DNA of 64,000 nt, from the NCBI GenBank assembly GCA_964511345.1, contig CAZEEV010000002.1, positions 2,770-66,769 on the forward strand. The letters are read 5' to 3'. Shown here one piece after another: positions 42,735 to 63,719 of the stretch. The stretch is from an uncultured Pseudomonadales bacterium. Its GTDB lineage: Bacteria; Patescibacteriota; Microgenomatia; UBA1400; PJMF01. Made by a program: the position numbers and the translations under genes. The notes under the pieces were generated by a model. It ran no database searches. It was given only the letters and a program-made list of their open reading frames with translations, and was not told the DNA's origin. Every line of letters begins with the position of its first letter. Positions within the stretch are counted from its first letter, which is position 1.

Positions 42735-44279
42735 ATGTACAATCCTAGAGACTTTATTCCAACAAAATACAAGAAAAATATTGATAAGGTCAGTAGTTCT
42801 TCTGATGATGAAAAACCAAGTGAGTCAATTATCGACTCTCCATGGAGTGATTTAGCTAAAGAACCACAAACTCCAGAGTATCGCAGTAACATCACTCTTA
42901 GTGAAAATGGTATTAAAAACGAATTAAATGCCTCAAGTAAACTTGAAGAATTAAAAGAAATCAGCCAAGAAGAACAGACTCCATCTAGTTTAAATTTAAA
43001 AAATAAATCTAGTAATAAGAAAAAACTAACCGGTCTTTTAATGGTTTTCTTTTTGGTTATCGGTGGTTTTGCTAGTTACATGCTTAGTCAACAAAATCAA
43101 GATAATCGCCAACAGGCTAGCACTGGTAGTGAGGATCCATATCCAACCGATAATAGTTGTGGAACAAACATGACAAGATGGTCTGATGGATATTGCAGGT
43201 GGGATAATTGTAGGGCAACATCTAACGGTAAAATACTCTGTGGCTACATTACCGATCAAGATGCCTGTACAGAACAGTCTATGGGTGGAGATTGGTGCGA
43301 TAATCCAAATACTAGCCGCGTAGAAAATTGTGAAGAATCAGGCTTAATGCGCTGTCAATGCAGTGCTGGTTGGTGGGTAATTGGTAAAGCCCCTAGTTGT
43401 AGTGAGTTATGTGGCGATGCCAACGCAGACTGTGATGATTGTCCTACCCCAACTCCTCCACCTGGTGGTGGAGGTGGCAGTGGCGAACCAACTCCAACTC
43501 CTACTCCTCCAGCTGAGCTTTTGGCTTGTGGGACAACTGGTTGCACACAAAATGACGATTGCCAAAATGGCTTAACTTGCCAATCAGTAACAGTGAATTC
43601 TCAATCAACTGGTATTTGTGCTAAAGGAGAAAATCAGCTTTTCTGTGCTGCTAACCCTACTACAGATAACTGCTGTATTAGTCAAGCTATGCCAGTTTGT
43701 GCCAGTATTGAAATGCTTGATGCAAGCAACAATTTAATGACTGGCGATGCTGATAAAAACCTAAAGGTTGGAGATGAAGTACGTTTCCGTTGTAATGCTG
43801 TTGGCAACCAAGATGTTGATTTTGATTATCAATTCAGAATTTGGGATAAATCTACCACTACATGGGTAGACATTACCGATAGCAGCGGAACTGTAGCAAA
43901 GAATATTTCCGATACATATAAAATTAATAATTTCAGTAAGCACGTCGTCCAAGGTCGCATTTGCTGGGGAACCGAATGCCAAGTCTGGGAAATAGTCGAA
44001 GGAGCACCAACGACAAAAGGAGAACCACTACCGCTAATTAATGACGTTAGATCGCTAAACTGTTTTGAGGAAAATGCTATTCCATGCGCAGATGGTTACA
44101 TTTGTTCTGCCACTCCAGCAGGTGGCTGTCCTTCATCAGTAACAGTGAATGGCGAAGAGCTTGTGAGCGCCTGCGCCAGAACACCATCTTGCATGAAAGC
44201 AGAAGGAATCGAATGCGAGACAGTTAAAGATTGTTTTGATGGGTATAGCTGTCAAGAAGGATTTTGTACAAAACAATGA
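42735..44279 (+). CDS. surface protein with signal anchor, Cys-rich modules and Pro/Gly/Thr linker (paralog family A)
   Basis: TM helix at about aa 100; SQQNQDNRQQASTGSEDPY shared with the 6555 protein; linker PTPTPPPGGGGGSGEPTPTPTPP; modules CGTTGCTQNDDCQNGLTCQ; 514 aa. Confidence 0.5.
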   Translation: MYNPRDFIPTKYKKNIDKVSSSSDDEKPSESIIDSPWSDLAKEPQTPEYRSNITLSENGIKNELNASSKLEELKEISQEEQTPSSLNLKNKSSNKKKLTGLLMVFFLVIGGFASYMLSQQNQDNRQQASTGSEDPYPTDNSCGTNMTRWSDGYCRWDNCRATSNGKILCGYITDQDACTEQSMGGDWCDNPNTSRVENCEESGLMRCQCSAGWWVIGKAPSCSELCGDANADCDDCPTPTPPPGGGGGSGEPTPTPTPPAELLACGTTGCTQNDDCQNGLTCQSVTVNSQSTGICAKGENQLFCAANPTTDNCCISQAMPVCASIEMLDASNNLMTGDADKNLKVGDEVRFRCNAVGNQDVDFDYQFRIWDKSTTTWVDITDSSGTVAKNISDTYKINNFSKHVVQGRICWGTECQVWEIVEGAPTTKGEPLPLINDVRSLNCFEENAIPCADGYICSATPAGGCPSSVTVNGEELVSACARTPSCMKAEGIECETVKDCFDGYSCQEGFCTKQ

Positions 44280-45274
44280 ATATAGATCAACATCAAACAC
44301 CAACCACTTATTTAAAATCCAAAGATGGGCATAGTTCTGGTGTAATGAAAAAAACAAGTAACTTTAAAGCAATTCTAATGGCTCTTGGTTTGCTAGTGTT
44401 TATTGGTGGAACAGTCAGCGTTTTTCTCATCAGTCAAAAACAAGACACCACTCCAGTAGCTCCAAATGCTCCACAATCACAACCGGCCGCTTATATTGAA
44501 AAAACACAAACCTGTACCCTAGAGTTTGAAGTAACAGAACCTGAAGAAGAAAAAGTTTCTTGTGGTAATAGTGGATGCACTAATACTGACGACTGTGTCA
44601 GTGGTTATGTTTGCGTTTCTACTTCAGCCACAGATGATGACGGCAATATTATGAAGTATTGTGCTGACGAGGATTATTTAGACGCATGTGTTAATAATCC
44701 AAATCAAAACAATTGTTGCGAAGCACCAGAGGAAAATAAATTAGAATGTGGTGAAAAAGGTTGCGATAATGACGAGGATTGCGAGGATAATTTAATTTGT
44801 GTTGATGCCGATGGCAACAATAGATATTGTGCTAAAGAATCATATCAAGATGCTTGTGCAGATGATCCGGATGAAGAAACCTGCTGTGAAGCACCAGCTA
44901 CAGTCACTCCTACTACTACACTCACCACTACGCCAACTGTTACGCCTACGACAACTGTAACTGCAACACCAACTAACAAAACTACTACCGTAACTCCCAC
45001 TGCAACAGTAACGACTATCATCACCACTGTCGGTTGCAATGAGACCTGCAAGGCTAACGCAGATTGCAGCAACGTAAGCCATATTTGTTATGGCGGACAG
45101 TGCCGTTTAGATGTCAATCCAACCGATAGCCAATGTAAATTACCTAATGGCGAAACCACGATCGTCCGTCCAGTGACAGTTCCAACTCAAAGTGGTCCTG
45201 CCAACTGGGCAAACTATGTCAAGGCAGGGCTTGGTACTTTAGGTATTGGCGCTCTCTTGCTACTACTTCTCTAA
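44264..45274 (+). CDS. surface protein with signal anchor, Cys-rich modules, 45-aa Thr-rich mucin-like stretch and C-terminal hydrophobic tail (paralog family A)
   Basis: CGNSGCTNTDDCVSGYVCV and CGEKGCDNDEDCEDNLICVD modules; TVTPTTTLTTTPTVTPTTTVTATPTNKTTTVTPTATVTTIITT; C-terminal GLGTLGIGALLLLLL. Confidence 0.5.
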   Translation: MYKTMNIDQHQTPTTYLKSKDGHSSGVMKKTSNFKAILMALGLLVFIGGTVSVFLISQKQDTTPVAPNAPQSQPAAYIEKTQTCTLEFEVTEPEEEKVSCGNSGCTNTDDCVSGYVCVSTSATDDDGNIMKYCADEDYLDACVNNPNQNNCCEAPEENKLECGEKGCDNDEDCEDNLICVDADGNNRYCAKESYQDACADDPDEETCCEAPATVTPTTTLTTTPTVTPTTTVTATPTNKTTTVTPTATVTTIITTVGCNETCKANADCSNVSHICYGGQCRLDVNPTDSQCKLPNGETTIVRPVTVPTQSGPANWANYVKAGLGTLGIGALLLLLL

Positions 45275-45439: not shown

Positions 45440-45889
45440 GTGTTACGCAAACTATTGATCATTATCGTCGTCATGTTTTTAATTTTTGGAACTTATAAAA
45501 TAGCTAAAGCTAAAAATCTTTTACCGAGCACTGTTTTTTCTAAAATCGAAGAAATTATTCCAGACAAAATTACTTTGCCTTGGAACAAGGAGAAAGAAAT
45601 TAAACTTGATGAGGTAAAAGTCGAACAAAAAGATCTAGAAAAACTTGGAGCTGATGGTCTATCTCAAATTCAGATCTTAGCAAACAAAGCCAAAGAAGCT
45701 GGTGGTGTTGCTCAAGACTTTGTAGATGACGTGGTCAAGGTTGACGAAAGTTCTGATAAAAATATCTCTGAAAAAGCATTCGATTATGGTAGATATATTT
45801 ATTGCCAAGAAGTAGTCAAACAGTATGAAGTCGCTCACAATTCTAATGAGGCTACTGACAGTTCAAGCACGGATTTAACATCAGAATAA
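45440..45889 (+). CDS. hypothetical protein with N-terminal TM anchor and acidic C-terminus
   Basis: 149 aa; TM helix LLIIIVVMFLIFGTY. Confidence 0.3.
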   Translation: MLRKLLIIIVVMFLIFGTYKIAKAKNLLPSTVFSKIEEIIPDKITLPWNKEKEIKLDEVKVEQKDLEKLGADGLSQIQILANKAKEAGGVAQDFVDDVVKVDESSDKNISEKAFDYGRYIYCQEVVKQYEVAHNSNEATDSSSTDLTSE

Positions 45890-46879
45890 ATGATGCTGCA
45901 AAAATTTTGGTTTTTCACCAACAGAAGAAGAGATAATTTTTTGTACACTTGGCAAACTTTGCAATAAATTTAAAACTTCTTTTTCATATTGAGGTAATGT
46001 CAAAACATGTACATTAAAACCTGTATTGATAGTGAAATAAGTTGGAATACCCTCTTTTCTAAGCTTACGAACAGCTTGCATAACTTCAATTGTCCCTGGA
46101 TAAAACAGTAATATATTTGGCTTGCTAGTTAATAAGATACTGTGAAATTCTAGAGCCTCAGCCTCAATTAATTCTCCTAAAGTTACGAAGTCTTTATCTA
46201 AAATTGCTTTTTTGACATTTGTAAGCTTTTCACCAATTTTCTCTTGACGAGCTGTAAAAAATAAACTTGTTTCTGCTAGATCATGACCCTCTGTGGAACT
46301 TAAGTTCTTTTTGTCTTCTGACACAATCGCCACCAAGTCTCTGATTGGAAAAGAATCTGGCTCTGCAAAACTTTGCGAATAAGATTCCTCTGAAGTTTCT
46401 CCATCCAACCATTCCACAAAACCTCCGTAAACACAACGACAAGCTGTGCCAGAACCCTGACGGGCTAAAATAGAGAGTTCTTTTTCTGATAGATCTAAAC
46501 CAATAGCCTTGCTAGCAGCTATCGTTAGAGCAGCAAAGCCAGATCCAGAACTAGAAAGGCCAGTACTTTTAGGAAAGTTATTTTCAGAAACAACTTTAGC
46601 AAAAATATTTTCTTTTATTAAATTTTGGCTTTGAGCCAAAGCTCTAATACGATCTAAGTGTTTAATTACACGAGAGGTCTCACCCTCTTCTGTTTCACCA
46701 CCAATAAACACTTCGTCCTTGCTTAAACTTGGTGAAAATTCAACAGTGGTCGTGCTATATAACGAATCCAGAATCATGGAAATACTGCCATTGGCAGGTA
46801 AACGCAAAATTTTGTCTTTTTTGCCCCAATATTTAACTAAAGCAACGTCGCTACTGGCTTGAGCTGTAATTTTTTGCAT
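45881..46879 (-). CDS. mvaD: mevalonate diphosphate decarboxylase family (MVD or phosphomevalonate-decarboxylase-like)
   Basis: GHMP fold; N-terminal ALVKYWGKKD (MVD KYWGKRD signature); GLSSSGSGFAAL. Confidence 0.75.
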   Translation of the reverse strand: MQKITAQASSDVALVKYWGKKDKILRLPANGSISMILDSLYSTTTVEFSPSLSKDEVFIGGETEEGETSRVIKHLDRIRALAQSQNLIKENIFAKVVSENNFPKSTGLSSSGSGFAALTIAASKAIGLDLSEKELSILARQGSGTACRCVYGGFVEWLDGETSEESYSQSFAEPDSFPIRDLVAIVSEDKKNLSSTEGHDLAETSLFFTARQEKIGEKLTNVKKAILDKDFVTLGELIEAEALEFHSILLTSKPNILLFYPGTIEVMQAVRKLRKEGIPTYFTINTGFNVHVLTLPQYEKEVLNLLQSLPSVQKIISSSVGEKPKFLQHHLF

Positions 46880-46886
46880 AAAACTT

Positions 46887-47885
46887 TTAATTTTCTGGCC
46901 TTACTCCCTCTTCATTCATGTTAACTTCAATAATTTTACCACCTGCTCGAGTAATTTCTTCAGCAACAGCACAATAATCGGCTGAATCGGCCAAAGCCAG
47001 CATACAATCTCCTCCGCCAGCACCTGAAAGTTTGGCACCCATTGCACCTGCGCTTTTGCTGGCAGCAATTAAATTCTCCAATTCAATGCTGCTCACTTGC
47101 AATCTACGCAATAAAGCTTGATTTTCATCCATTAATAAACCTAAATGCGGCCAATCTTGCTGTTGAAGAGTTTTTTTAGCTTGTTCAACTAATAAAGTGA
47201 TGTCGGTAAAGATATGATTAATAACTTCTTTATTATCGCTATGCAAACTTTGCACCATGCGTACTAAAGTAGCTGTATCAGCCTTAATTCCAGTATAGCC
47301 AACCATCAATGGCAAGCTTTTAATACTAATTGGCTCAACTGTTTTATGTTTGGTGAATTTGCCGTGAGGCGTAACATAATACAAAGTGCCACCCCAAATG
47401 CCAGCAGCAATATCAAATCCAGAAGCCACTCCCTGAACTTCAAGAACAGTGGCATAACAAAGATCGAATAACTCATCGTTGCTCATTGGCACCTCATAGA
47501 ATTCGCTCAGTGCTTTAGCAAAAGCTACCGTGCTTGCGCTACTCGAGCCTAGACCGTAAGAACTTTTGAATTCGTTTTTACTATAGACATGAATAGTTTT
47601 TTTCTGCGGATATTTTTTTAAAAAAAGTTTATAGCAAGTCTCAATAAAACTTACCTCTTTTGGCAAATTTTCATTACCAAGATCGGTGATTTTTTTTGAA
47701 TAAGCTCGTAAACCTAAATCTGGTGCATCCAAGATAAAAACTTCTTCACCGTTTTCTTCAACAGTGATCGATAAACGACGATTAACGGCAGTCACAATAC
47801 AAGGATGACCAAAAACTACACTATGTTCACCAAATAACATTAATTTACCAGGCGCTGAAGTTTTAATAACTTTTTTCATAAACAA
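46887..47885 (-). CDS. GHMP kinase, mevalonate-kinase-like (MVK or divergent phosphomevalonate kinase)
   Basis: APGKLMLFGEHSVVFGHP; GLGSSSAS; SGAGGGDCMLAL. Confidence 0.7.
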   Translation of the reverse strand: MFMKKVIKTSAPGKLMLFGEHSVVFGHPCIVTAVNRRLSITVEENGEEVFILDAPDLGLRAYSKKITDLGNENLPKEVSFIETCYKLFLKKYPQKKTIHVYSKNEFKSSYGLGSSSASTVAFAKALSEFYEVPMSNDELFDLCYATVLEVQGVASGFDIAAGIWGGTLYYVTPHGKFTKHKTVEPISIKSLPLMVGYTGIKADTATLVRMVQSLHSDNKEVINHIFTDITLLVEQAKKTLQQQDWPHLGLLMDENQALLRRLQVSSIELENLIAASKSAGAMGAKLSGAGGGDCMLALADSADYCAVAEEITRAGGKIIEVNMNEEGVRPEN

Positions 47886-48747
47886 CTCCTATCTGAGTTT
47901 GAAAAAAATCCAAACCCATTTTTTCTAGATTTACCTTAAATTCCTGAGGATCTTCATGCCAAGCTAAAATATAACCTGAGCCAGTTTTTACCCCTCCAGC
48001 TCCAGTAATTTTGCAAAAGGCACCATAGTTTTTTAATTTTTGAATGATTTCTTGAGCTTTTAGGCCAACCACACCTATTTGCTCCAATAAAATCTGGTTT
48101 TCATTTAATAAACTTGGGTTGAAAACACCAGAATTCAAATTCTCCAACATTCTTTGACTTAAAATTCCAATTTTTTGCAAGATTGCTTGATTATTTGGCT
48201 TATCGGCAACTTTTTGCACCATCTCTCCAGTCGATTCACTAGCTTCTCCGGAATTGATTAAGAAAAAATGTTCATTCATCAATGTTTTATTTGATATCGA
48301 TTCTACTTTGCCCTGACTAAAAGCGATTAGTCCTCCATAAACCACAATGCTTGGGTCTGCTCCACTTGAGTGACCATGAATAAAATTTTCTGCCTCTAAA
48401 ACCAAATTATAGAGACGATCTTCATTTAGAGAATAATTATGAAATTTAAACAACTCACTAAAAACTGCAGCAGCAAAGGCAGCTGAAGAACCAAGACCAG
48501 ATTTCTCTAGTAAATTAGATTCAATTTGAATACTAACGTTAATTTTGGAAAGCGGGAATTGAGTGTGTTTGGCAAAAATCTCTAAAATATGTTGCAAATA
48601 TCGATCTTGTTTTTGTTCTTTGCTTAAAAAACCTTCTTTAACCTTACAACTGATACCCATATTTAAACTCGCTAAAATCGCGGTGTGTCCATAAACCACA
48701 CTATGTTCACCAGTTAAAATGACTTTTCCGCTATAAAAGCTAGACAT
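47863..48747 (-). CDS. mvk: GHMP kinase, mevalonate kinase-like
   Basis: SGKVILTGEHSVVYGHTAI; GLGSSAAFAAAV; TGAGGVKTGSGYILA; 294 aa. Confidence 0.7.
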   Translation of the reverse strand: MSSFYSGKVILTGEHSVVYGHTAILASLNMGISCKVKEGFLSKEQKQDRYLQHILEIFAKHTQFPLSKINVSIQIESNLLEKSGLGSSAAFAAAVFSELFKFHNYSLNEDRLYNLVLEAENFIHGHSSGADPSIVVYGGLIAFSQGKVESISNKTLMNEHFFLINSGEASESTGEMVQKVADKPNNQAILQKIGILSQRMLENLNSGVFNPSLLNENQILLEQIGVVGLKAQEIIQKLKNYGAFCKITGAGGVKTGSGYILAWHEDPQEFKVNLEKMGLDFFQTQIGVVYEKSY

Positions 48748-49027
48748 GTTGTACTTTCAAGCCATAACAAATTATCTCGCTCGAAGCCTCTTTTTTAATT
48801 TTTCTTAAAACTATTTCCACTTCGTCATCAATTTCGAATTCACTGTGCGCAACTCCCATTAAAGAAATTTTTTCTTTACCTAAATCAACCAACAAATAAG
48901 CATAGGGCAATAACTCAGTTTGATCAGAAGCAGAGACTTCCATCATAGAAACAGACAAAACTTTGCCTTTTTTACCTAAGTATTTAGACCAATTTTTATT
49001 TGAGCGCCAATATTCTGTAATTTGCAT
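48740..49027 (-). CDS. DUF35-like OB-fold protein (scaffold partner of archaeal-type thiolase/HMG-CoA synthase), lacking the Zn-ribbon
   Basis: 95 aa; position directly downstream of the thiolase; OB-fold-like GKVLSVSMMEV...YAYLLVDLGKEKISLMGVA...DDEVEIVLRKI. Confidence 0.5.
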   Translation of the reverse strand: MQITEYWRSNKNWSKYLGKKGKVLSVSMMEVSASDQTELLPYAYLLVDLGKEKISLMGVAHSEFEIDDEVEIVLRKIKKEASSEIICYGLKVQHV

Positions 49028-49088
49028 AATTTCTGCTTTATAATTTAGTTAGTCACGTTCGACTGAAATTCAAAGTGTTTATTTCTCA

Positions 49089-50201
49089 TTATTTTTTCCC
49101 CAGGATGTTAACTATTGCCGTCGCACCACTACCACCGACATTGTGCGCCAACGTTCGATCAAACTGACCAGCTTCAATTAAAGATGAAAGATAAGCGATT
49201 TGTTTAACCCCAGTAGCTCCCACCGGATGCCCACAAGCTTTTAGTCCACCAGATGGATTAATAACTATTTGTCCATCATAAGTTGCTTGACCTGCAGCGA
49301 TTGCTTGAGCTGCTTTGCCTTTAGCAAAAAATCCAAGATCTTCAGCAGCTAAAATTTCAGCAATACTAAAACAGTCATGCACTTCAATGGCTTGAATATC
49401 TTTTTGACTCAAACTAGCCTGATTAAAAGCTTGTTTAGCTGCTTTTTGCGTGGCTACTAATTTTCCCAAATCCTGGCGATCTTGCAAAGCCAAAGTATCT
49501 TGACCATGACCAAAACCTAAAATTTGAGCTTTACGATTGGATTTTTTACTACTTAGAATTACCGCCGCTACTCCATCGCTAATGGGTGAACAATCTAAAA
49601 GTCTAAGCGGTGAAGCAACCACGGCAGAATTAGAGACATCTTCCAAGGTAAATTTTTTGTGAAATTGAGCCTTGGGATTATTAAAAGCATGTAGATGGTT
49701 TTTAACCACCACACTAGATAACTGCTCACGAGTTGTTCCATAGCGATGCGTATGATAATTGGCCAAAATGGCATAAAGAGCAGGAAAAGTGGAGCCATAT
49801 TCTTTTTCTCTGCTGGCTGCCGTCGCCAAAATGGCACTAGCCTGACTACCAGAAACATCAGTCATCTTTTCTACTCCCAAAACTAGAACTGTCTTGTACA
49901 AACCACTAAGTAAAGCTTGTTGCGCCGCCACAACTGCCAAACCACCAGAGGCACAAGCCCCTTCGACGCGCATAGCTGGTGGAAAATGATCAAATTGTTC
50001 ACTCACTAAAGCACCCAAATGTCTTTGCTCATTAAAACTGCCTCCAGCTTTATTAGCCACGAAAATTGCTTCGATTTCTGAAGGATTAATTTGAGCGTCA
50101 ACTAAGACACCATTAACACCTTCCTTAATCAAATCAGTTAAACTTTTTTCCCAAAGCTCACCAAATTGACCAATATAATTGCCAATTACTTTAATGTTCA
50201 T
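49089..50201 (-). CDS. acetyl-CoA C-acetyltransferase (archaeal-type thiolase)
   Basis: Active-site Cys context RVEGACASGGLAVVAAQ; C-terminal GHPVGATG and GGSGATAI; 370 aa. Confidence 0.8.
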   Translation of the reverse strand: MNIKVIGNYIGQFGELWEKSLTDLIKEGVNGVLVDAQINPSEIEAIFVANKAGGSFNEQRHLGALVSEQFDHFPPAMRVEGACASGGLAVVAAQQALLSGLYKTVLVLGVEKMTDVSGSQASAILATAASREKEYGSTFPALYAILANYHTHRYGTTREQLSSVVVKNHLHAFNNPKAQFHKKFTLEDVSNSAVVASPLRLLDCSPISDGVAAVILSSKKSNRKAQILGFGHGQDTLALQDRQDLGKLVATQKAAKQAFNQASLSQKDIQAIEVHDCFSIAEILAAEDLGFFAKGKAAQAIAAGQATYDGQIVINPSGGLKACGHPVGATGVKQIAYLSSLIEAGQFDRTLAHNVGGSGATAIVNILGKK

Positions 50202-51276
50202 TCTGGCTCCTCATTTTTTGATAATTGGCAAGATTAATGGTTTGCAAAGCAGCAATTTGCTCTGCAAGCATGTTTGAATATTTTTTTCTTTGCATAACTA
50301 AATGATTAGTTGTTTCAAAAAGAAAAGCGTCTGCACCAGCACCAGAACCATAAGAGCAAACTAGTATTTTGCTTTTAGTAGGAGCGATATCTAAAATTTG
50401 GCTCAAAGCTAAAAGCGAAGCTGCCGCATAAGTGTTGCCCACTTCTTTTACAACTAGAGAAGGGGCTAGTTGCTCTCTAGTAAAACCCAATTGTTTAGCT
50501 ACTTGTTGTGGAAACTTAGCATTAGGAGTGTGAAAAACACAAAAATCTATGTCAGCTGGTTGTAAATTAACTTCCTCTAACAAGGCTTTTGTTGCCATGA
50601 TCACATGCTTAAAATAAGCTGGCTCACCAGTGAATCTACCAAAGTGTTGTGGGTAAGATTCTTTGGGTTTGCGCCAAAAATCTGGCGTATCAGTTGCTAC
50701 TGATTTAGTAGCCAGTAATTCAACTAATAGCTGATTACCATTTGCTTCGCTACCAAGGATAAAGGCGGCGGCGCCCGCCGCCGCAGTATATTCCAGTGCG
50801 TCTCCAGGACGAGCTTGGGCAGTGTCGGCACCAATGGCTATAGCATTTTTAAACATGCCCGCTTGCACATAAGCAGCGGCGATTTGTAGGGACTGCGAGC
50901 CTGCTTTGCAAGCAAATTGCAAATCAGCCATACTTAAATAATCACTCAAGCCTAAAGCTGTCTTAACTACTGTACCAGATGGTTTCACTGCATACGGATG
51001 GCTTTCACTACCAATAAAAAGTGTACCAATATCACTGACTGCTCCACCGTTAGATAAAAAGCGATCAAGAGCAATTTTTCCTGCGTCTGTTGCTAAAGTA
51101 ATTGTGTCTTCATCAATACTTGGCACAGTTTTGGATGAAACACCCAAAGATTTAACTAAATCGGAGTTTTTTCCTTGGCTTTGGGCGATTGTGCTGGTCA
51201 GAACTTTTTGCTTAGGTAAAGCTGCAGCGTAAGCAACAATACCAACTCGATTTTTATTTATTTTAGAGTTTTTCAT
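50191..51276 (-). CDS. mvaS: hydroxymethylglutaryl-CoA synthase (archaeal-type, about 360 aa)
   Basis: FabH-like fold; LQFACKAGSQSL (catalytic Cys); FHTPNAKF; CSYGSGAGAD. Confidence 0.75.
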   Translation of the reverse strand: MKNSKINKNRVGIVAYAAALPKQKVLTSTIAQSQGKNSDLVKSLGVSSKTVPSIDEDTITLATDAGKIALDRFLSNGGAVSDIGTLFIGSESHPYAVKPSGTVVKTALGLSDYLSMADLQFACKAGSQSLQIAAAYVQAGMFKNAIAIGADTAQARPGDALEYTAAAGAAAFILGSEANGNQLLVELLATKSVATDTPDFWRKPKESYPQHFGRFTGEPAYFKHVIMATKALLEEVNLQPADIDFCVFHTPNAKFPQQVAKQLGFTREQLAPSLVVKEVGNTYAAASLLALSQILDIAPTKSKILVCSYGSGAGADAFLFETTNHLVMQRKKYSNMLAEQIAALQTINLANYQKMRSQNEH

Positions 51277-51280
51277 TTAA

Positions 51281-52456
51281 TTATCTTGCTAAACGCTGAT
51301 GCGCGCTTGCTAAACTATGGTTACTGAGAGCTGCTAAACCAGAAATTTCGGCCGCTAATACACCAACTGCGAGGATTGTGACTAGTTGCGATGCATTAAG
51401 ATCTTTTTGACCCTTTGTGATAAGTGTTCGCAACTCTCTTTGAGCTGGCAAATTAGTGCCACCGCCAACACTGCCAAATGGAAGATCTGGAAGATTGACA
51501 GCAATATAAATGCCTTTTTCTTCGTTTTCTACGATAGTAGTGCCTTGACTTGCCTCCACAATATGAGCCAGATCTTGACCAGTAGCCATGTAAAAAGCTG
51601 CTACTACATTGGCAAATTGCATGTTTAAAGAATTAGAACCTGCTACATTAGAACCAATAATATTTTTAGCATGGTGAGTTCTTAAAAAATCCCTAGCATT
51701 TGTCTTCAGCACATTTTGCAGAATCTCTTCACTTAAAAAAACCTCAGCCTGAACGCCATAGCCTCTGCCTAATAATTGATTGATAAATGATGCTTTTTTG
51801 TCAGTACAAACATTGCTAGACAAGGCTAACATTTTAATACCTTGATATTGACTCAAAAAATCCTCCCACAATTTTTGTAGAGCAATCGTCACCATATTCA
51901 TACCCATTGCCTGATCTGTTAAGAAACTAAAACGTACATAAACATTACGACCTCTGACAAAACTCATTAATTTAATAAATTTAAGATGAGAGCTGGTTTT
52001 TTCCGTGACTTGGCTGATTTTTTTGAGGGTTTTTTCCTCCTCTAAATATTTAGTAAAAGTAAAAGCCTCGTTTCCATTTTTAAAAGCAAAAACTGGAGCT
52101 CGAGTCATGCCAAAATTTTTGACCATGACTTGCGCGCCGCCAGCTTGATTAATGGCTTTCAAACCTCTGTTGACACTGGCAACGAGAGCTCCTTCGCTAG
52201 TCGCTAATGGCACAAAATATTCTTCTGTTTGTTGCTGTTCATCAATAATTTTCACTGGGCCAGCCAAACCAACCGGCAATGCCACTGCTCCAATCATATT
52301 CTCACAGTTGTGTTGATTAGCTTTACTCAATTCTTCACCAACATTAAAAAGATGATTGTATCCATCTTTTTTCCATGTTTCTTGCAATTTTTTTTGTCGC
52401 TCAAAGATCGTTTCCAGATCAGAGAGTTCGTTTGGGTTTTTTGAAAAGAATGACAT
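51281..52456 (-). CDS. mvaA: hydroxymethylglutaryl-CoA reductase
   Basis: ENMIGAVALPVGLAGPVKI; DQAMGMNMV; GSVGGGT; 391 aa. Confidence 0.85.
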   Translation of the reverse strand: MSFFSKNPNELSDLETIFERQKKLQETWKKDGYNHLFNVGEELSKANQHNCENMIGAVALPVGLAGPVKIIDEQQQTEEYFVPLATSEGALVASVNRGLKAINQAGGAQVMVKNFGMTRAPVFAFKNGNEAFTFTKYLEEEKTLKKISQVTEKTSSHLKFIKLMSFVRGRNVYVRFSFLTDQAMGMNMVTIALQKLWEDFLSQYQGIKMLALSSNVCTDKKASFINQLLGRGYGVQAEVFLSEEILQNVLKTNARDFLRTHHAKNIIGSNVAGSNSLNMQFANVVAAFYMATGQDLAHIVEASQGTTIVENEEKGIYIAVNLPDLPFGSVGGGTNLPAQRELRTLITKGQKDLNASQLVTILAVGVLAAEISGLAALSNHSLASAHQRLAR

Positions 52457-52544
52457 TACCTATTAATAGTCGTAAAAAAAAGCAAAATCATGCAAGAAAT
52501 TTTACATGGCAATCTGGATTTTTTAGTTATAAAATAAGCCAACT

Positions 52545-53225
52545 ATGAAAACAGTGGGCATCATTGGTGGATTGGGACCAGAAACTACGGCGGAATTTTA
52601 TTTAAAGTTAATTTTTTCTAGTTTTGAAAAAGATAAAAAAAAGAGACCTCCCGTGCTGATTTGGAGCATTCCTCTTGAGTATCAGCTTGAACAAGACTTC
52701 ATTACCAAAAGCAAGGGAATTGAAAAATATATCCCATATCTTCAAGATGCAGCTAAAAGATTGGAGAATGGCGGAGCAGATTTTATTGTAATTCCTTGCA
52801 ATTCTGTGCATCTTGCCATTGATGCCGTGCGCCAAGCTGTTAAAATCCCGGTTTTAAGCATTGTTGAAGAAACAGAGAAATTTCTTAAAAAAAGAAACAT
52901 TAAAGAGATTGCTTTGTTGGCAACAAACCCAACCGTCAAGACAAATTTATATAATTTAAAGAATATTAAAATTCATTTACCCATAGAAAAAGATCAGAAG
53001 AAAATTGGACAACTAATTAATAATCTAGTTCGTAGTAGATACAGCAAAAAAGACCAAGCTGAATTAATTAACATTATTAGAAAATTTGCAAAAGAAGACA
53101 TTAAACATGTTGTTTTAGCTTGCACTGATCTGCAACTATTAACTCCAACATATGCCGGAACAGAAATTTTTGATTCCATGGCAATTTTGGCAGAGGCAAC
53201 AATTGAAAAAATCTTAAAATGCTAA
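52545..53225 (+). CDS. aspartate/glutamate racemase family protein
   Basis: IIGGLGPETTAEFY, IVIPCNSVHLAI, VVLACTDLQLL (the two catalytic Cys blocks of PF01177). Confidence 0.75.
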   Translation: MKTVGIIGGLGPETTAEFYLKLIFSSFEKDKKKRPPVLIWSIPLEYQLEQDFITKSKGIEKYIPYLQDAAKRLENGGADFIVIPCNSVHLAIDAVRQAVKIPVLSIVEETEKFLKKRNIKEIALLATNPTVKTNLYNLKNIKIHLPIEKDQKKIGQLINNLVRSRYSKKDQAELINIIRKFAKEDIKHVVLACTDLQLLTPTYAGTEIFDSMAILAEATIEKILKC

Positions 53226-54283
53226 AAAAAATACAAATAGAAAAAAAACTTATTGATACCTGGCTATTAAATTTCCTTCAAGAGGAAGAGAAAAATTTTA
53301 ATCAACAAGCTCTAGTTCAAGAAGCTTTTGCCATTATTAAAGATTTTGTCACTAGTGGGAAAACTGTGCGCGGCGGCCTTTTTTTACTCACCGTAAAAGC
53401 TTTCAATGCACAGATCTACCAAGAAAACCAAAAAGATTTATTAGCTGTGGCCGCCGCACTAGAGCTAGCTCATTCCAGCTTGCTTGTTCATGACGACATT
53501 ATTGATCGAGACGAGATGCGTCGTGGACAGGATTCTGTTTGGCAACAATATGCTAAGAATGCCATCAAAAATGACTACAAAAATCCTCAAAATTATGGTC
53601 AGAGCTTAGCTATTTGTGTTGGCAATATCTTAAATTATTTAGCTGATTTAGCCTTGGCAAGAATTTTTAAACTCCCCACAAATATTCAAAACGATCTTAA
53701 AAAAACCATTGATAAAGAAATTATTAAAACCAATTTTGCAGAAATGCTAGACAGCAAAATCACTCTTCAGAATGAGTTGCCTTCCACAGACGAGGTGCTA
53801 GAAATGTACTTATTCAAAACCGCTCGTTATACCTTTTCTCTTCCTTTCAAATTAGCTGGAATTATCAATCAATTATCTGATAGCCAAAATAATAATTTAA
53901 TTGAAGCTGGCGAAAAATTGGGCATGATTTTTCAAATAAAAGACGATGGAATCAGTCTCTTTGCCACTGAAGAACTTTCTGGAAAAAGTTTTGCTTCGGA
54001 CATTAAAGAAGGTAAAAAAACAATTTTTTATCTCACTTTAATCAAAAACGTCAATAAATCTGAGCAAAAATTTCTTACAGAAAACCTTGGCAAGAGAGAT
54101 CTCGACTTGAAAACTATCGAGAAAATCCAAAATTTATTTCATAAGTACACTAAAAACGAAATTGAAAAAACTATCCAGCAATTAAAACAAGATGCAAAAG
54201 TGCAGATTAAAAAAATTGAGTCGATTCAAATTGCTGAACTACTTGAGGAAATTCTTGACTTTAACTTAAATAGAAAATTTTAG
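53219..54283 (+). CDS. polyprenyl diphosphate synthase (FPP/GGPP synthase family)
   Basis: First Asp-rich motif LVHDDIIDRDEMRRGQ; second FQIKDDGISLF; 354 aa. Confidence 0.8.
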   Translation: MLKKIQIEKKLIDTWLLNFLQEEEKNFNQQALVQEAFAIIKDFVTSGKTVRGGLFLLTVKAFNAQIYQENQKDLLAVAAALELAHSSLLVHDDIIDRDEMRRGQDSVWQQYAKNAIKNDYKNPQNYGQSLAICVGNILNYLADLALARIFKLPTNIQNDLKKTIDKEIIKTNFAEMLDSKITLQNELPSTDEVLEMYLFKTARYTFSLPFKLAGIINQLSDSQNNNLIEAGEKLGMIFQIKDDGISLFATEELSGKSFASDIKEGKKTIFYLTLIKNVNKSEQKFLTENLGKRDLDLKTIEKIQNLFHKYTKNEIEKTIQQLKQDAKVQIKKIESIQIAELLEEILDFNLNRKF

Positions 54284-55485
54284 TTTAGCTCTTCCGTGTG
54301 ATGTTCTTTAATTAGCAAGGTTAGCATCACACCTACTGCAGCAACAATAAATAAACTTTTCCAAGCAATAATCACGAAATTAAAAAGCAAGACAACAATT
54401 AGCCAAAAAATAATTGTTGCTAAACTGTAAATCATTTCTCGATAAACAAAATAAGATAATGCTTCTCGACCTTTGCCTCTTAATATCCAGCTACGATCAA
54501 AAAACAACCAATGAAAACTAGCAGTTAATTTATCGATTGCATTCAAAATAGTGATTGACCAGATATTGACTAAAAAACCTCTTAAAACCCAAAAAATTGA
54601 CAAGAAACTTCCAGAGAGCAAAAATTGTTTGTTGTTTTTACTTTTATCAACAAAAGAGCCTGCCACATAACTAATAAATAAAGCTAAAAACAAAGATAAG
54701 CTATATAAATATCCTAATCCTTGCACAGTACCTAAAATAATAAACATATAAAGTGACCATAAAGACATGGTGCCATCATTGAAACTATGGCCTGTAAAAG
54801 TTAGCGCTAAGCGTCTAAAGCCAGGCTCTTTTAGCCAAGTAAAAAACTCTTTAAAAGATATGGCATCCCTAACTTTGACATTGTCCAAAAGCACTGAAAA
54901 TATTACTCCAAAAAGTACTATCACCAACCCCAATAAGAACAATGCCTGGTATCCCAAAGTAACAATAATTAAACCTCCTAAAGCTGGAGCAATCATTGCC
55001 AATAAATTTAGTAAGAAATTTATGATTCCCAGATTGGCACCTATTTTTGACTGATCACTATTGCGACTTAAAGAGTAATGGTAGCTATTCCAGAAAAAAT
55101 TGATTTGAAAACCGTTAACTACAGCTGCTAAGAAAATTAAATAAGGATTTTCTTTAGATAAATAAAGTAATAAAACAAATAAAACATAGCACAAATGACC
55201 CATCAAGAAACCATGTCTGATACCATATTTAATTGAGATTTTAGAGATTGGAATAGCTGACAAAAAAGAAACAAATCTGGTAGAAGCATAAATCATCGCT
55301 ACATTAAAAATCCCCTCTTTTAATGCTGATAATTCAAATTGGCTCATAAAAGGAAAGCGTATATTAAAAAAATAGATTGGTAGAAAAAAAACCACCAGAT
55401 GATTAGTTAATTCGCGCACTAAACGAATGGCATAAGTATATTGAAAATTCTTAGTTTTCTGAAAACTTAAGTGGAGAATAGGCAT
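54280..55485 (-). CDS. polytopic membrane protein, possible MFS-type transporter
   Basis: About 12 predicted TM helices; no strong family signature. Confidence 0.4.
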   Translation of the reverse strand: MPILHLSFQKTKNFQYTYAIRLVRELTNHLVVFFLPIYFFNIRFPFMSQFELSALKEGIFNVAMIYASTRFVSFLSAIPISKISIKYGIRHGFLMGHLCYVLFVLLLYLSKENPYLIFLAAVVNGFQINFFWNSYHYSLSRNSDQSKIGANLGIINFLLNLLAMIAPALGGLIIVTLGYQALFLLGLVIVLFGVIFSVLLDNVKVRDAISFKEFFTWLKEPGFRRLALTFTGHSFNDGTMSLWSLYMFIILGTVQGLGYLYSLSLFLALFISYVAGSFVDKSKNNKQFLLSGSFLSIFWVLRGFLVNIWSITILNAIDKLTASFHWLFFDRSWILRGKGREALSYFVYREMIYSLATIIFWLIVVLLFNFVIIAWKSLFIVAAVGVMLTLLIKEHHTEELN

Positions 55486-56064: not shown

Positions 56065-57168
56065 ATGAAAACCATTGGAATCTTCACTAGCGGCTATGGA
56101 CACGAAAGTATCGCTGATGCTATTGCAGAAAAAATTGAACAAAAAGCCAAAGGAAGATATAAAGTCAAAAAATTTTTCCGAAAAGAAATTCTTGGTTTTG
56201 CTTATAATTCAATTTATAAGTTTATTCCAGAATCTTTAGGACCTTCTTTTTATCTGAGTTCAAAATTTATTCGTAAAGACAATAATGTTAGAAAATTCTT
56301 AGAAAATTTGTTTTTAGTTAATACAGAAAAGAAAATTAAAGATTTTGTCAAAAAAAATAAAATAAGTTTATGTATTAGCACTTATTTTGGATGCAACCCT
56401 ACTCTGGAAAAAATACAAAAAGAAGGAATTCCACTAGTGAATATCATCACTGATCCTAAAACTGCTCATCCTCTCTTAATTTCGCCAATTGCTAAAGCAC
56501 AAATGGCTTTTGATGAGACTGTTTTTAAGTTATATGCTGATAAAAACACAAAAAAATCCGGTTGGTTTGTAAGATCAAAATTTGAAAACAACTATGACCA
56601 AAGAGAAATTAGAAAAAAACTAAAAATAGACAATCATCTAACTTTTTTAGTTGTTTCTGGCTCTGAGGGAGCGAATGCTATTTTAAAAATTCTACCTAGC
56701 ATCATTAATTGCAATAAAAAAGTAAATTTTATTATTGCTTGCGGCAAAAACAAGTTTCTGTATAACAATATTCTCGGAATTAAACAAAGCTTAAACAGCT
56801 TAAGTTCTTCTAAAGCACAAGTCATTCCTCTTAGTTACACTAAAAATCTGCATTTATATATGCAAGCTGCCGATATGGTTATTGGCAAAGCTGGACCAAA
56901 CACACTTTTCGAAAGCATCGCTTGCGAAACTGCGTTTTTTGCCATCACTCATATTCATGGTCAAGAAGATGGCAATTTGGACATTATTAGAGATTATAAA
57001 ATTGGCGTTGTTGAAGAAAACACTAAAAAAGCCAATCAAGAATTAGAAAAATTAATTCAAAATCCAGAAAAGATCAATTCTTTTACAAAAAATATTAAAA
57101 AACTTAAAGAGTACAACAAAAATTCAATTAATATTTTACTTGAAGAAATTGAAGGTTTATTAAATTAG
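56065..57168 (+). CDS. GT28-like glycosyltransferase (MGDG-synthase/UgtP/MurG-like C-terminal domain), possible glycolipid synthase
   Basis: VVSGSEGANAILKIL and IGKAGPNTLFESIACETAFFAITHIHGQEDGN resemble the GT28 C-terminal nucleotide-sugar-binding domain. Confidence 0.45.
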   Translation: MKTIGIFTSGYGHESIADAIAEKIEQKAKGRYKVKKFFRKEILGFAYNSIYKFIPESLGPSFYLSSKFIRKDNNVRKFLENLFLVNTEKKIKDFVKKNKISLCISTYFGCNPTLEKIQKEGIPLVNIITDPKTAHPLLISPIAKAQMAFDETVFKLYADKNTKKSGWFVRSKFENNYDQREIRKKLKIDNHLTFLVVSGSEGANAILKILPSIINCNKKVNFIIACGKNKFLYNNILGIKQSLNSLSSSKAQVIPLSYTKNLHLYMQAADMVIGKAGPNTLFESIACETAFFAITHIHGQEDGNLDIIRDYKIGVVEENTKKANQELEKLIQNPEKINSFTKNIKKLKEYNKNSINILLEEIEGLLN

Positions 57169-59033
57169 GTGGCAATATGAATTGAAGCCAGCTCTTCAAG
57201 AGTCGTCGCTTCTTCATAGTTTTTATCACTACGAATTCGTACTAGCCTTGGAAAACGCAGGGCTACACCAGCGCTATGAATTGGTGACTGACTAATTTCA
57301 TCAGCGGCAATTTCTAAAACAATTTTTGGTTCCAACCAAAAATCTGGAGCCAAATTCTTATCGACATCATAAATAGCTGGTTTGTGATTTTTTTGACTCA
57401 AATTTTGATCTGCCATTTTTTTCACTTCTTTAAATTGCTCATCTGTTAAACCGGTGCCAATTTTAGATAGGCTTCTCACAATTAAATCTCCAGCCTCATC
57501 CTTATCCAAAACACCCACCAGTAAAGCACCAATTCCAAAAGCTTGTCTTTTACCTTTACCCACGTAGTAACCAAGCATGATGCAATCAATAGTATCCGAT
57601 AATTTTCCCTGGCTACCTTCTTCTTCTTTAATTTTAACCCAACGCCAAGATTTACGACCAGAAACATATTTTGAGTTTTTTTGCTTCATCACCGCACCCT
57701 CTAGACCTAGTTTCAATTGCTCTTCATGAAAAATCTTAAGCTTAGTCGGATCACTAATTAATAAATATTCTGTTTTTTTAATAAATTCTGAATCAGTTAA
57801 GATTTCATTTAGTTTGCTTTTTCTAGCAAGCAACTCTTCATCAATTAACACTTCATTATCGAGTAAAATTAGGTCAAAAGTGTAAAAACAAAGTGGAACC
57901 TCTAAGGCTTTAGCCGAAACGTTATGCTTGCGCTTGCGCTGTATGGTTTCTTGAAAAGATAAAAATTTGCCAGTTTTTTGATCAATACCAATAGCCTCCG
58001 TATCTAAAATACAATTTTGTACTTTAAGTGCTTTGACTACTTCCATCAATTCAGGAAACATGTGAGTCACGTCTTCTAAATTCCTGGTAAAAGCTTTATA
58101 TGGTAAATCATTATCTGCAAACTTTTCTTTATTAATATGAATTTGTACTCTCAGACCATCGTATTTTGGTTCGGCGAGAACCTCACCCATTTTCTCAATA
58201 ATTTCATGAGCGCTATTTAATCGCTGACAAAGTACAGGCAAAACGGGAATACCAATTTCTACCTGATAGGTTTTAAGCAATTCTGCACTACTTAATCCTG
58301 GGTATTCTAATAAATAAGCGGTGGCTAACTTACCTAAGTCGGCCTTTTTATAAAATGCTTTTTCCAAATTAGAACTATCGCTTTTGGTGCCAGTTTTCAC
58401 AAAAGACAAAGCATCGATGAGTGTCATGGTTGAAAAACCGAGCCTCATCTTGGATAAGATAATTCTGCTAATGTATTTGGCTGACAACGGATCTAGTTTT
58501 TGCAATAGATTAGCTAAAAAAGCTATTTTTTTATCTTGAGAACCAATCCCAGAAGTTGTGGCTATTTCACAGAGCAATGAATGAACTTCTTTAATTGAAA
58601 ACTGTTCTTTAAGTTTTTCAGAAGATTCCAGCTCAATTAAAGTTTGTTCAAAAAGTTCACCAATGTCGCCAACTTTTTTATATCTAGCAGTCAACTCTTT
58701 CTCCAGAATAGAATGATCACTGAATAAACTTTGATCGGTATTTGAAACTTCAGAAAAAAGATTATCTGCGTTAACTCGATCGAAACCTTTAACTTTAGCT
58801 TTTACATGGGCCAAGGTTTTGATTAGCATTTTTTCTGACATTTGAAACTCTAAGGATAAATACGAAGGCACTAAACTACCCTGCATCAAATAAGTTGCCA
58901 CGGTTAATTCTTCTTTAGCTTGCTGACCCTTCATTAAATCTTTAAAAAGATCAGCTAAAATAGAGGTAATTTCCAGACGAGCGGAAACATTTTCAATCTT
59001 TTGCAAATAGACGGAAAAGTCTTTAAAAAGCAT
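57165..59033 (-). CDS. lig: ATP-dependent DNA ligase (Lig1/archaeal-type, with N-terminal DNA-binding domain)
   Basis: Motif I EPKYDGLRVQIH (KxDG); motif IV/V region EGAVMK; motif VI-like WLEPKIVLEI; 622 aa. Confidence 0.85.
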   Translation of the reverse strand: MLFKDFSVYLQKIENVSARLEITSILADLFKDLMKGQQAKEELTVATYLMQGSLVPSYLSLEFQMSEKMLIKTLAHVKAKVKGFDRVNADNLFSEVSNTDQSLFSDHSILEKELTARYKKVGDIGELFEQTLIELESSEKLKEQFSIKEVHSLLCEIATTSGIGSQDKKIAFLANLLQKLDPLSAKYISRIILSKMRLGFSTMTLIDALSFVKTGTKSDSSNLEKAFYKKADLGKLATAYLLEYPGLSSAELLKTYQVEIGIPVLPVLCQRLNSAHEIIEKMGEVLAEPKYDGLRVQIHINKEKFADNDLPYKAFTRNLEDVTHMFPELMEVVKALKVQNCILDTEAIGIDQKTGKFLSFQETIQRKRKHNVSAKALEVPLCFYTFDLILLDNEVLIDEELLARKSKLNEILTDSEFIKKTEYLLISDPTKLKIFHEEQLKLGLEGAVMKQKNSKYVSGRKSWRWVKIKEEEGSQGKLSDTIDCIMLGYYVGKGKRQAFGIGALLVGVLDKDEAGDLIVRSLSKIGTGLTDEQFKEVKKMADQNLSQKNHKPAIYDVDKNLAPDFWLEPKIVLEIAADEISQSPIHSAGVALRFPRLVRIRSDKNYEEATTLEELASIHIAT

Positions 59034-63290: not shown

Positions 63291-63719
63291 ATGAAGAACA
63301 AGTTTATATTAGTTATTTTCTTATTCTTAACTTTTATCACTGGTTTTCTTTTCGCACATCCTCAAGAAATCAGTGCTCAAACCGCCGCGCCTGAAGAAAA
63401 TTTACTGGAAGTTGAAAACGTAGAAATTTCCTTAAGCGATAAGATGATTTTAAAAGACGGCACTCCAGTCAAGGACGTTTTTAATAGTACTGATGATATT
63501 GTCAATCTAATTGTTAAAGTGGTCTTTGTTGGCGCCGGCGTAGTACTTTTTGTGATGATCGTGATGGCAGGATTTTCAATGATCGGCGGAGACAGCAAAG
63601 ATAAAGACAAGGCTAAAACCACTATGACCTCCGCTGCCATTGGCTTCATCATAATGTTTGCAGCCTATTGGATCATGCAGATTATTCAACTCTTAACTGG
63701 TATTAAGATGGGTTTTTAA
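63291..63719 (+). CDS. small secreted/membrane protein with VirB2/TrbC-pilin-like architecture
   Basis: Signal peptide MKNKFILVIFLFLTFITGFLFA, then two hydrophobic helices (VVKVVFVGAGVVLFVMIVMAGF and AAIGFIIMFAAYWIMQIIQLL); 142 aa. Confidence 0.35.
   Translation: MKNKFILVIFLFLTFITGFLFAHPQEISAQTAAPEENLLEVENVEISLSDKMILKDGTPVKDVFNSTDDIVNLIVKVVFVGAGVVLFVMIVMAGFSMIGGDSKDKDKAKTTMTSAAIGFIIMFAAYWIMQIIQLLTGIKMGF

Follow-up and report, generated by a model that had tools for sequence, protein, structure and literature searches.

A probable classical mevalonate operon with an archaeal-type front end, a ribbon-free DUF35 homolog and mixed kinase and decarboxylase signatures in a Microgenomates patescibacterium

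How would isopentenyl diphosphate (IPP) be made by a bacterium whose mevalonate (MVA) genes look archaeal at the front end, include two kinases of seemingly the same kind and have no evident IPP isomerase (IDI) beside them? The question is raised by a 64-kb stretch of contig CAZEEV010000002.1 from an uncultured patescibacterium, hereafter the window. On its minus strand, at 45881-52456, genes follow one another in the transcription order HMG-CoA reductase (HMGR), HMG-CoA synthase (HMGCS), thiolase, DUF35 homolog, two GHMP kinases (K294, then K332) and decarboxylase; they overlap or are spaced by 4-61 nt, and therefore form a single operon. We consider it probable that this is a classical MVA operon typical of Microgenomates Patescibacteria, leading from acetyl-CoA to IPP with an archaeal-type front end. 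The thiolase and HMGCS would convert acetyl-CoA to HMG-CoA, probably complexed via a minimal, zinc-free DUF35 protein, and the class I HMGR would take HMG-CoA to mevalonate. K294, as mevalonate kinase (MVK), would then phosphorylate mevalonate, and K332, as phosphomevalonate kinase (PMK), mevalonate 5-phosphate; the decarboxylase would turn mevalonate 5-diphosphate into IPP. From there IPP would pass to the polyprenyl synthase encoded divergently from the operon, most plausibly for a bactoprenol-type lipid carrier.

The open reading frames (ORFs) that a preliminary description of the window had named as a mevalonate operon are all present, as ORF listing and Pfam and NCBIfam scans confirm. Its suggestion that an archaeal-style MVA operon in a bacterium would be new was not upheld: such operons are published for Microgenomates, and the archaeal-type HMGCS-thiolase-DUF35 triad occurs in many phyla. 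Hoshino & Gaucher (Mol Biol Evol 2018, PMC6107057) report exactly this gene set in most Microgenomates. Their set from the candidate phyla radiation (CPR) is that of the window, with archaeal-type acetoacetyl-CoA thiolase (AACT) and HMGS, HMGR-I, MVK, PMVK and DPMD at one locus; an isoprenyl diphosphate synthase lies nearby, and in many genomes IDI-I does too. Unlike in many of those genomes, IDI-I is not adjacent to the operon in the window and its closest relatives. The same authors find IDI-I universal in MVA-bearing CPR, and in some CPR they find homologs of isopentenyl phosphate kinase (IPK) of unknown role, often syntenic with IDI-I (PMC6107057). Their study deals with gene presence and phylogeny only, and leaves DUF35, the pocket and the catalytic residue of the decarboxylase described below unmentioned. 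The operon is thus a member of a published system and adds no new pathway to it.

In an HMGCS scan of species-representative genomes, we found the archaeal-type triad in Ignavibacteria, Gemmatimonadota, Chloroflexota, Bacteroidota, WOR-3, Cloacimonadota and Planctomycetota, among others. The closest relative in that scan is ~50% identical, and only L064 (Daviesbacteria; loci carry L numbers here) is syntenic, with the gene order of the window: HMGR-HMGCS-thiolase-short DUF35-K294-like-K332-like-decarboxylase. Between the kinases and before the decarboxylase of L064 sit unrelated small ORFs of 134 and 81 aa (L064:10547-10951(+) and L064:12023-12268(+)); the CPR operon therefore tolerates insertions. 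A metagenome scan with the decarboxylase alignment returned ~35 loci of CPR type; of these, 14 extend over the thiolase and the genes that follow. The same gene order recurs in ~14 metagenomic CPR loci and in the two closest relatives: L081, an 841-kb contig whose decarboxylase is 79% identical, and L161, a 272-kb contig found via the neighbouring racemase gene. Both keep the arrangement of the window from the decarboxylase through an MFS gene, and synteny with L161 extends to genes for a peptidyl-tRNA hydrolase, a glycosyltransferase, a DNA ligase and Fic. The nearest named relatives of the operon are Pacebacteria.

The first enzymes of the pathway are readily recognised. HMGR (class I, first gene of the operon, 51281-52456, minus strand) scores 347 bits with PF00368 and 340 bits with TIGR00533, under the cutoff of 441.8 of the latter. 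The 361-aa HMGCS (50191-51276, minus) is of the archaeal/CPR type: TIGR00748 gives 367.7, above its cutoff of 353.35, PRK04262 gives 407.8, and the Glu-Cys-His-Asn catalytic tetrad is intact (SESH, FACKAG, FHTPN, GNTYA). The 370-aa acetoacetyl-CoA thiolase (49089-50201, minus), also archaeal in type, reaches 417.1 with PRK06064 (cutoff 420) and 375 with the Methanothermococcus-type AACT model NF053570 (cutoff 600); its catalytic motifs, the Cys in ACASGG, HDCF (HDxF) and GHP, are intact. The archaeal affinity ascribed to both enzymes at the outset agrees with these scores, that of the thiolase with PRK06064 lying just under the cutoff.

A peculiarity of HMGR lies at residues 180-187 (51896-51919), which read TDQAMGMN instead of the usual GDAMGMN. 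The same TDQAMGMN occurs in L081 and L087; L161 and L096 have TDEAMGMN, and one Woesearchaeota locus has TDNAMGMN. What we take to be the catalytic Asp of HMGR (human D767) would correspond in these sequences to Gln, Glu or Asn, and the residue just before it is Asp.

The gene that starts 61 nt past the thiolase stop (48740-49027, minus) encodes 95 aa with one Cys and no CxxC. From this single sequence PF01796 is detected at E 1.2e-3, under its gathering score, and 6ESQ chain E at E 0.007. The alignment of the CPR family with full-length DUF35 proteins by hhalign gives a probability of 99.9% and an E of 1e-32; a single gap of 32 columns coincides exactly with the Cys4 ribbon, leaving in place the N-terminal 'WR...Y' segment and the OB barrel. 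Searched against the PDB, the CPR-family profile has 6esq_E as its best match (E 3e-17). An AF2 model (pLDDT 77.8, five strands) leads to the same family: the best Foldseek matches are 6ESQ chains E/G/F, and the top 12 are all DUF35 proteins, with BbsA, MucC, Shy-DUF35 and Trf, every one a DUF35, ranking after 6ESQ. The description of this ORF as DUF35-like and without its Cys4 ribbon is thereby sustained by all three comparisons, including the profile comparison that it had called for. Judged by profile and predicted fold, the 95-aa protein is a true DUF35 homolog from which the zinc ribbon has been deleted. A frameshifted or missed ribbon upstream of the ORF is ruled out by the 61 nt that separate it from the thiolase gene and by the recurrence of the short form in 15 other loci.

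The short form is present in 16/16 CPR operons (the window and 15 loci that carry the thiolase), with homologs of 95-107 aa and CxxC in none of the 15. Archaeal and non-CPR bacterial triads nearly all encode a DUF35 of 125-165 aa with two CxxC; the position of the gene after HMGCS and thiolase is the same across these triads and the CPR loci. When 1.84 billion cluster representatives were searched exhaustively with the profile, 158 clusters matched the ribbon-less DUF35, and ~126 of the best 150 are shorter than 118 aa with a match starting near residue 5, so that ribbon-less DUF35 proteins form a sizeable family. In databases these relatives go under 'uncharacterized OB-fold protein' or as hypothetical, most of them have no Pfam domain assigned, and the close 95-aa homologs with a source name come from 'Patescibacteria group bacterium' and 'Candidatus Pacebacteria' (Microgenomates). 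L066, labelled Candidatus Saccharimonadales, encodes a DUF35 with the full Cys4 ribbon, close to Micrarchaeota sequences: either some CPR-labelled bins are without the short form, or this contig is mis-binned. No link between DUF35 and CPR appeared among the top literature matches.

The natural point of comparison is the Methanothermococcus thermolithotrophicus complex (PDB 6ESQ/6ET9). Its triad order of HMGCS, thiolase and DUF35 matches that of the window, the catalytic motifs of both enzymes are present, and its OB-fold subunit is the best match in sequence and in fold. That small subunit carries a rubredoxin-like Cys4 zinc ribbon, whereas the subunit of the window is without it (a 32-residue deletion); every structurally characterised DUF35 binds zinc (PMC6996347). 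By its conserved gene position, the short DUF35 probably bridges thiolase and HMGCS.

The two kinases are less easily told apart. K294 (294 aa, 47863-48747, minus) and K332 (332 aa, 46887-47885, minus) both contain GEHSVV, where solved PMKs have GEYAI or GEYAV, and similarity over the whole sequence and to PDB profiles favours MVK for both, taken singly or as family profiles; that there are two MVK-like kinases with GEHSVV, as first described, is correct. With the K294 family profile, MVKs of archaea, bacteria and eukaryotes lie evenly at 125-140 bits and Listeria PMK at 104 bits; the K332 family profile gives 200 bits to Methanosarcina MVK and 113 bits to Listeria PMK. With TIGR00549 (MVK, cutoff 163.05), K294 scores 148.9, below the cutoff, and K332 198.2, above it, and the curated model therefore names as MVK the kinase that is otherwise assigned as PMK. 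Both PMK models place K332 below their cutoffs, at 126.8 (TIGR01220, cutoff 165.7) and 109.2 (NF040957, cutoff 500); K294 scores 41 and 28.8 with the same models. Similarity alone could not separate the two roles, which were assigned from motifs, co-occurrence and a tree.

The motif that sets K332 apart is motif III, SGAGGGDC (47004-47027), invariant within the K332 family. Solved PMKs have SGAGGGDC (3GON) or SGSGGGDC (3K17), and MVKs have TGAGGGGC; the form GAGxGG[C/N] is found in MVKs including those of single-kinase Chloroflexota and the ordinary MVK of a Woesearchaeota locus. K332 is also PMK-like in its DIAAxxWGG segment and in the aromatic residue before GLGSS, and K294 has the MVK-like motifs sGLGSSAA and HGxSSGADPS. 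Compared with the Gram-positive PMKs (S. pneumoniae 3GON/1K47, Listeria 3K17), K332 thus shares SGxGGGDC, DIA[AS]xx[YW]GG and the aromatic residue that precedes GLGSS, and is their sister in the tree; it differs in having GEHSVV instead of GEYAV, in lying closer to archaeal MVKs and in falling below both NCBIfam PMK cutoffs. In a neighbour-joining (NJ) tree rooted with the decarboxylase and including two reference PMKs, the K332 sequences form a clade with 100% bootstrap whose sister group, at 65%, is the PDB PMKs; the K294 clade, with 98%, is on the MVK side. In L022 and L115, the decarboxylase has a K332-like gene beside it, whose partner is an ordinary MVK instead of a K294-like kinase. Occurrence of a K332-like gene also tracks Lys or Arg at the β-phosphate site of the decarboxylase, as detailed below. 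On these sequence features we think it quite likely that K332 is a PMK that keeps an MVK-type motif I and that K294 is the MVK. The identity of the second kinase, first left between a divergent PMK and an enzyme of another route, is thus best read as PMK, with its MVK-like similarity remaining, and the phylogeny that had been proposed as a check agrees for K294 and, at 65%, for K332.

The last gene of the operon (45881-46879, minus) encodes a decarboxylase, as had been described: TIGR01240 (diphosphomevalonate decarboxylase, DMD) gives 259.1 against a cutoff of 171.35. The haloarchaeal phosphomevalonate decarboxylase (PMD) model NF040704 gives 189.6 against a cutoff of 475. The best PDB match is 6N0X, the PMD of Anaerolinea thermophila (PMC9254496), with 272 bits; the DMDs of Enterococcus, Staphylococcus and others reach at most 200 bits. 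The sequence of 6N0Z differs from that of 6N0X by two substitutions, Asn to Lys in YWGx and His to Met, and 6N0Z is presumably a specificity-switched mutant.

These two substitutions, together with Table 4 of Dellas et al. (PMC3857490), define the positions that discriminate DMD from PMD, given here in S. epidermidis numbering. At the Lys21 site the enzyme of the window has Lys20, in YWGK (46814-46831), which is DMD-type; at the Ile27, Arg193 and Met196 sites it has Arg26, Thr196 and His199 (the last in the SSTEGH segment), all PMD-type. The phosphate-binding residues Tyr18, Lys21, Ser139, Ser141 and Ser192 correspond to Y17, K20, S143, T145 (a conservative change) and S195. The enzyme shares the fold and the GHMP motifs with both the Anaerolinea PMD and DMDs such as 5V2L, 2HK2 and 3QT5; Arg at the Ile27 site and S-T-x-G-H are in common with the PMD, and Lys at the Lys21 site with the DMDs. 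The comparison of residues by which the two activities were to be told apart therefore speaks for DMD at Lys20 and for PMD at Arg26, Thr196 and His199.

Lys21 of the S. epidermidis enzyme binds the β-phosphate (PMC3857490). Its site is Lys or Arg in 26 of 27 decarboxylase homologs with a K332-like neighbour, and Asn, Asp or Leu in all 15 without such a kinase, counting as kinase-free those with at least 3 kb of flank on both sides (Fisher p = 1.6e-10, with no correction for phylogeny). This split supports a diphosphate substrate and, independently, the role of K332 as PMK. We infer from these residues that the enzyme is a diphosphomevalonate decarboxylase on a PMD-like scaffold.

A second departure, which had not been anticipated, concerns catalysis itself. 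Residues 282-289 (46013-46036) read FTINTGFN in place of FTxDAGPN, so that the catalytic Asp is replaced by Asn285; the residues that follow are changed too, to TG[F/Q] instead of AGP. The Asp belongs to an (F/Y)TxDAGPN motif and is D283 in S. epidermidis, D282 in E. faecalis, D281 in S. solfataricus and D280 in AthPMD; it is stated to be conserved throughout the related decarboxylases (PMC9254496, PMC7414129). All 33 CPR-operon homologs have Asn at this place, and the 50 other homologs and three PDB references all have Asp. Every solved DMD and PMD has the catalytic Asp, and the enzyme of the window differs from them in this Asn and in its mixed signature of one DMD-type and three PMD-type positions. 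Mutations of the Asp have varied effects: D-to-T and D-to-V turn SsoDMD into a 3-kinase, D309N inactivates PtoMBD (PMC9254496, PMC7414129), and D281N leaves SsoDMD with DMD activity (PMC9254496). The last result makes Asn285 compatible with decarboxylation and, by analogy, the enzyme most likely still decarboxylates despite the clade-wide Asn.

Several points weigh against the operon being a classical pathway with these assignments. Whole-sequence similarity gives no clean split between the kinases: K332 is closer to archaeal MVKs than to PMK, passes the NCBIfam MVK equivalog cutoff and carries GEH, not GEY, and its sister relation to the PMKs has only 65% NJ bootstrap with two reference PMKs. 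The correlation of the Lys21 site with the kinase is uncorrected for phylogeny. The decarboxylase is closest to a characterised PMD (272 vs 200 bits), is PMD-like at 3/4 discriminating positions and has at the catalytic Asp the very substitution that killed PtoMBD. The bridging of thiolase and HMGCS by a ribbon-less DUF35 is a prediction by analogy from gene position, and searches for IDI were negative both in the window and, in L081 and L161, up to 10 kb from the operon. The kinases could have their roles swapped, K332 being the MVK and K294 the PMK of a pathway that would still be classical. The TIGR00549 scores (198 and 149 against 163), the 200 bits of the K332 family to Methanosarcina MVK, the MVK-type PGKxxLFGEH of K332 and the aberrant motif III of K294, GAGGVKTGSG, would suit such a swap. 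We hold it to be unlikely, given the PMK-specific GGGDC motif of K332, the even and good scores of K294 to MVKs of three domains, its lower scores than K332 on both PMK models, the pairing of K332-like genes with an ordinary GGC-type MVK in L022 and L115, and the tree, in which K332 groups with PMKs and K294 with MVKs. Less likely again is a route of the haloarchaeal/Chloroflexi type, in which the decarboxylase would be a PMD acting on mevalonate 5-phosphate, with IPK encoded elsewhere and one of the kinases redundant or acting on another substrate. The 272 bits to the Anaerolinea PMD as best solved homolog, the PMD-like Arg26, Thr196 and His199, and the IPK homologs reported from some CPR, often in synteny with IDI-I (PMC6107057), agree with it. 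Against it, the β-phosphate site holds Lys and not the Asn, Asp or Leu of PMDs, in step with the adjoining K332-like kinase, no IPK is seen in the window or in any aligned CPR locus, NF040704 stays at 190 against 475, and the tight coupling of two kinases to the decarboxylase suits the classical route.

The invariant Asn (33/33 CPR homologs, against Asp in 50/50 others), its changed neighbours (AGP to TG[F/Q]), the 3-kinase activity of the D-to-T and D-to-V mutants of SsoDMD and the inactivity of PtoMBD D309N (PMC9254496) could also mean that the decarboxylase homolog has only a 3-kinase or some other activity, and that the CPR lower mevalonate pathway is an undescribed variant. This we regard as improbable: SsoDMD D281N keeps its DMD activity (PMC9254496), the other catalytic and binding motifs are all intact, neither a second, MBD-like decarboxylase homolog nor a UbiD/AcnX-type gene is present in the operon or the window, and the operon would otherwise be a dead end. 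Two known routes are rejected, the Thermoplasma-type route in view of a single homolog of mevalonate diphosphate decarboxylase and no M3P5K or IPK, and the archaeal AcnX/UbiD route because no such genes are present. Finally, the preliminary description had seen, in place of an obvious IPP isomerase, the Asp/Glu-racemase-family protein encoded at 52545-53225 on the plus strand. As the window and the flanks within 10 kb in L081 and L161 showed no IDI, one might look to this gene, whose 7-nt overlap couples its translation to that of the polyprenyl synthase, an arrangement also seen in L161-L163. We give the suggestion hardly any weight. The protein passes the amino-acid-racemase model TIGR00035 (135 against 93.1) and keeps both Cys motifs, PCNS (52794-52805) and ACTD (53118-53129). 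It has 2348 homologs at E <=1e-20, and those with a source name are called aspartate or amino-acid racemase, as in Woesebacteria, one homolog of which adjoins tRNA-editing and rRNA-methylase genes, an unrelated context. L081 lacks it through a clean indel of ~680 bp at an otherwise identical locus, the prenyl synthase there abutting a near-identical HMGR upstream region, and none of 160 MVA-related loci examined has it. Many relatives carry a canonical IDI-1 inside or beside the operon (L082, L084, L085, L087, L088, L095, L098, L106 and L114, among others). By these sequence criteria the protein is an ordinary amino-acid racemase, a lineage-specific neighbour outside the pathway and no replacement for IDI.

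Where, then, is the isomerase? The absence of idi and fni from the window was confirmed, and that of IPK was added to it: PF00293 (IDI-1), PF01070 (IDI-2) and PF00696 (IPK) have no match in the 64-kb window among ORFs of 110 aa or more, and tblastn of a CPR IDI-1 against the window is negative. This absence holds for the 64-kb window of a genome that is probably ~0.8-1 Mb in size. The IDI-1 proteins of the relatives have close database matches named isopentenyl-diphosphate isomerase, for instance in Collierbacteria, which like Woesebacteria are Microgenomates. In the source genome an IDI is presumably encoded elsewhere.

Some of the isomerases of the relatives are themselves unusual. Beside the MVA operon of L099 (L099:1979-3556(-)) and L118 (L118:1796-3421(-)), IDI-1 (Nudix) is fused to a polyprenyl diphosphate synthase in proteins of 525 and 541 aa. 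The IDI-1 of six loci has WDFTASTHP with no Cys in that stretch: L064:16117-16668(-), L088:10914-11444(-), L095:13042-13638(-), L098:7238-7771(-), L106:10955-11482(-) and L114:4575-5132(-). We take this to be the position of the catalytic-Cys motif NSVCGHP of E. coli IDI. The Cys is kept there in L082, L084, L085, L087 and L091.

Upstream of HMGR, a divergent intergenic region (52457-52544) is presumed to hold the promoter of the operon. It is nearly identical to the HMGR upstream region of L081; scans of consensus promoters and terminators gave fewer matches than in shuffled sequence, and the promoter scan was not above chance. Across it lie, on the plus strand at 52545-54283 and divergent from the operon as first described, the aspartate/amino-acid racemase gene and, overlapping it by 7 nt, that of a trans-polyprenyl diphosphate synthase (53219-54283, plus; PF00348, 160 bits), which is likewise divergent from HMGR in L081 and L161. 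The first Asp-rich motif of the synthase, DDIID, is canonical; the second (residues 242-246, 53942-53956) is DDGIS, not DDxxD. L081 and L161 have DDEIS here, and other CPR have DDILG or DDILD. An MFS transporter gene (54280-55485, minus; PF07690) follows, a conserved neighbour at the matching position in L081 and L161.

The remainder of the window, with a G+C content of ~33%, has Patescibacteria-type features. A VirD4/TrwB-like coupling ATPase (44-2383(-)) and a type IV secretion pilin (63291-63719(+)) lie at opposite ends and agree with the type IV secretion system reported in Patescibacteria. An ATP-dependent DNA ligase of 622 aa and three domains (57165-59033(-); N, adenylation and C-terminal), archaeal/eukaryotic-like, is a further such feature, and its position is conserved in L161. 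At ~10800-42700, ~30 kb rich in glycosyltransferases, O-antigen-ligase-like proteins, methyltransferases, a carbamoyltransferase and an ABC-2 exporter, with a G+C content down to 24-30% in parts, look like a large cell-surface glycan locus. Between this and the operon, 42735-44279(+) and 44264-45274(+) encode adjacent proteins of 514 and 336 aa, each with one hydrophobic segment and no Pfam match; Cys is abundant in both, arranged in repeated C-x-G-C / D-x-C-type modules, the linkers are rich in Thr and Pro, and a location at the cell surface is probable.

A more speculative view, which we would hold with considerable doubt, is that the CPR lower mevalonate pathway is a surviving evolutionary intermediate, with its MVK-motif PMK, PMD-pocket decarboxylase and zinc-free DUF35 complex. 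The PMD-type pocket may have gained only the β-phosphate Lys and, with Asn for Asp, the enzyme may accept both mevalonate 5-phosphate and mevalonate 5-diphosphate, or carry out an altered elimination. If so, these enzymes would be measurably unlike the textbook ones in specificity or mechanism.

Three properties, all clade-wide in CPR, are undescribed: the DUF35 is zinc-free, the probable PMK has a motif I of MVK type and the decarboxylase combines its mixed signature with Asn. The interest is modest, and these enzyme variants are cheaply testable with recombinant proteins. Likely annotation errors are corrected: a PMK that the curated model would name 'mevalonate kinase', an MVK that falls under its model cutoff and a DUF35 homolog called 'hypothetical'. 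The DUF35 scaffold would be able to do without the zinc ribbon that is present in every solved DUF35, and Asn at an 'invariant' catalytic Asp bears on the debated role of that residue. The CPR kinases and decarboxylases would offer natural examples for the proposed MVK-to-PMK and PMD-to-DMD transitions, hitherto mimicked only by mutagenesis.

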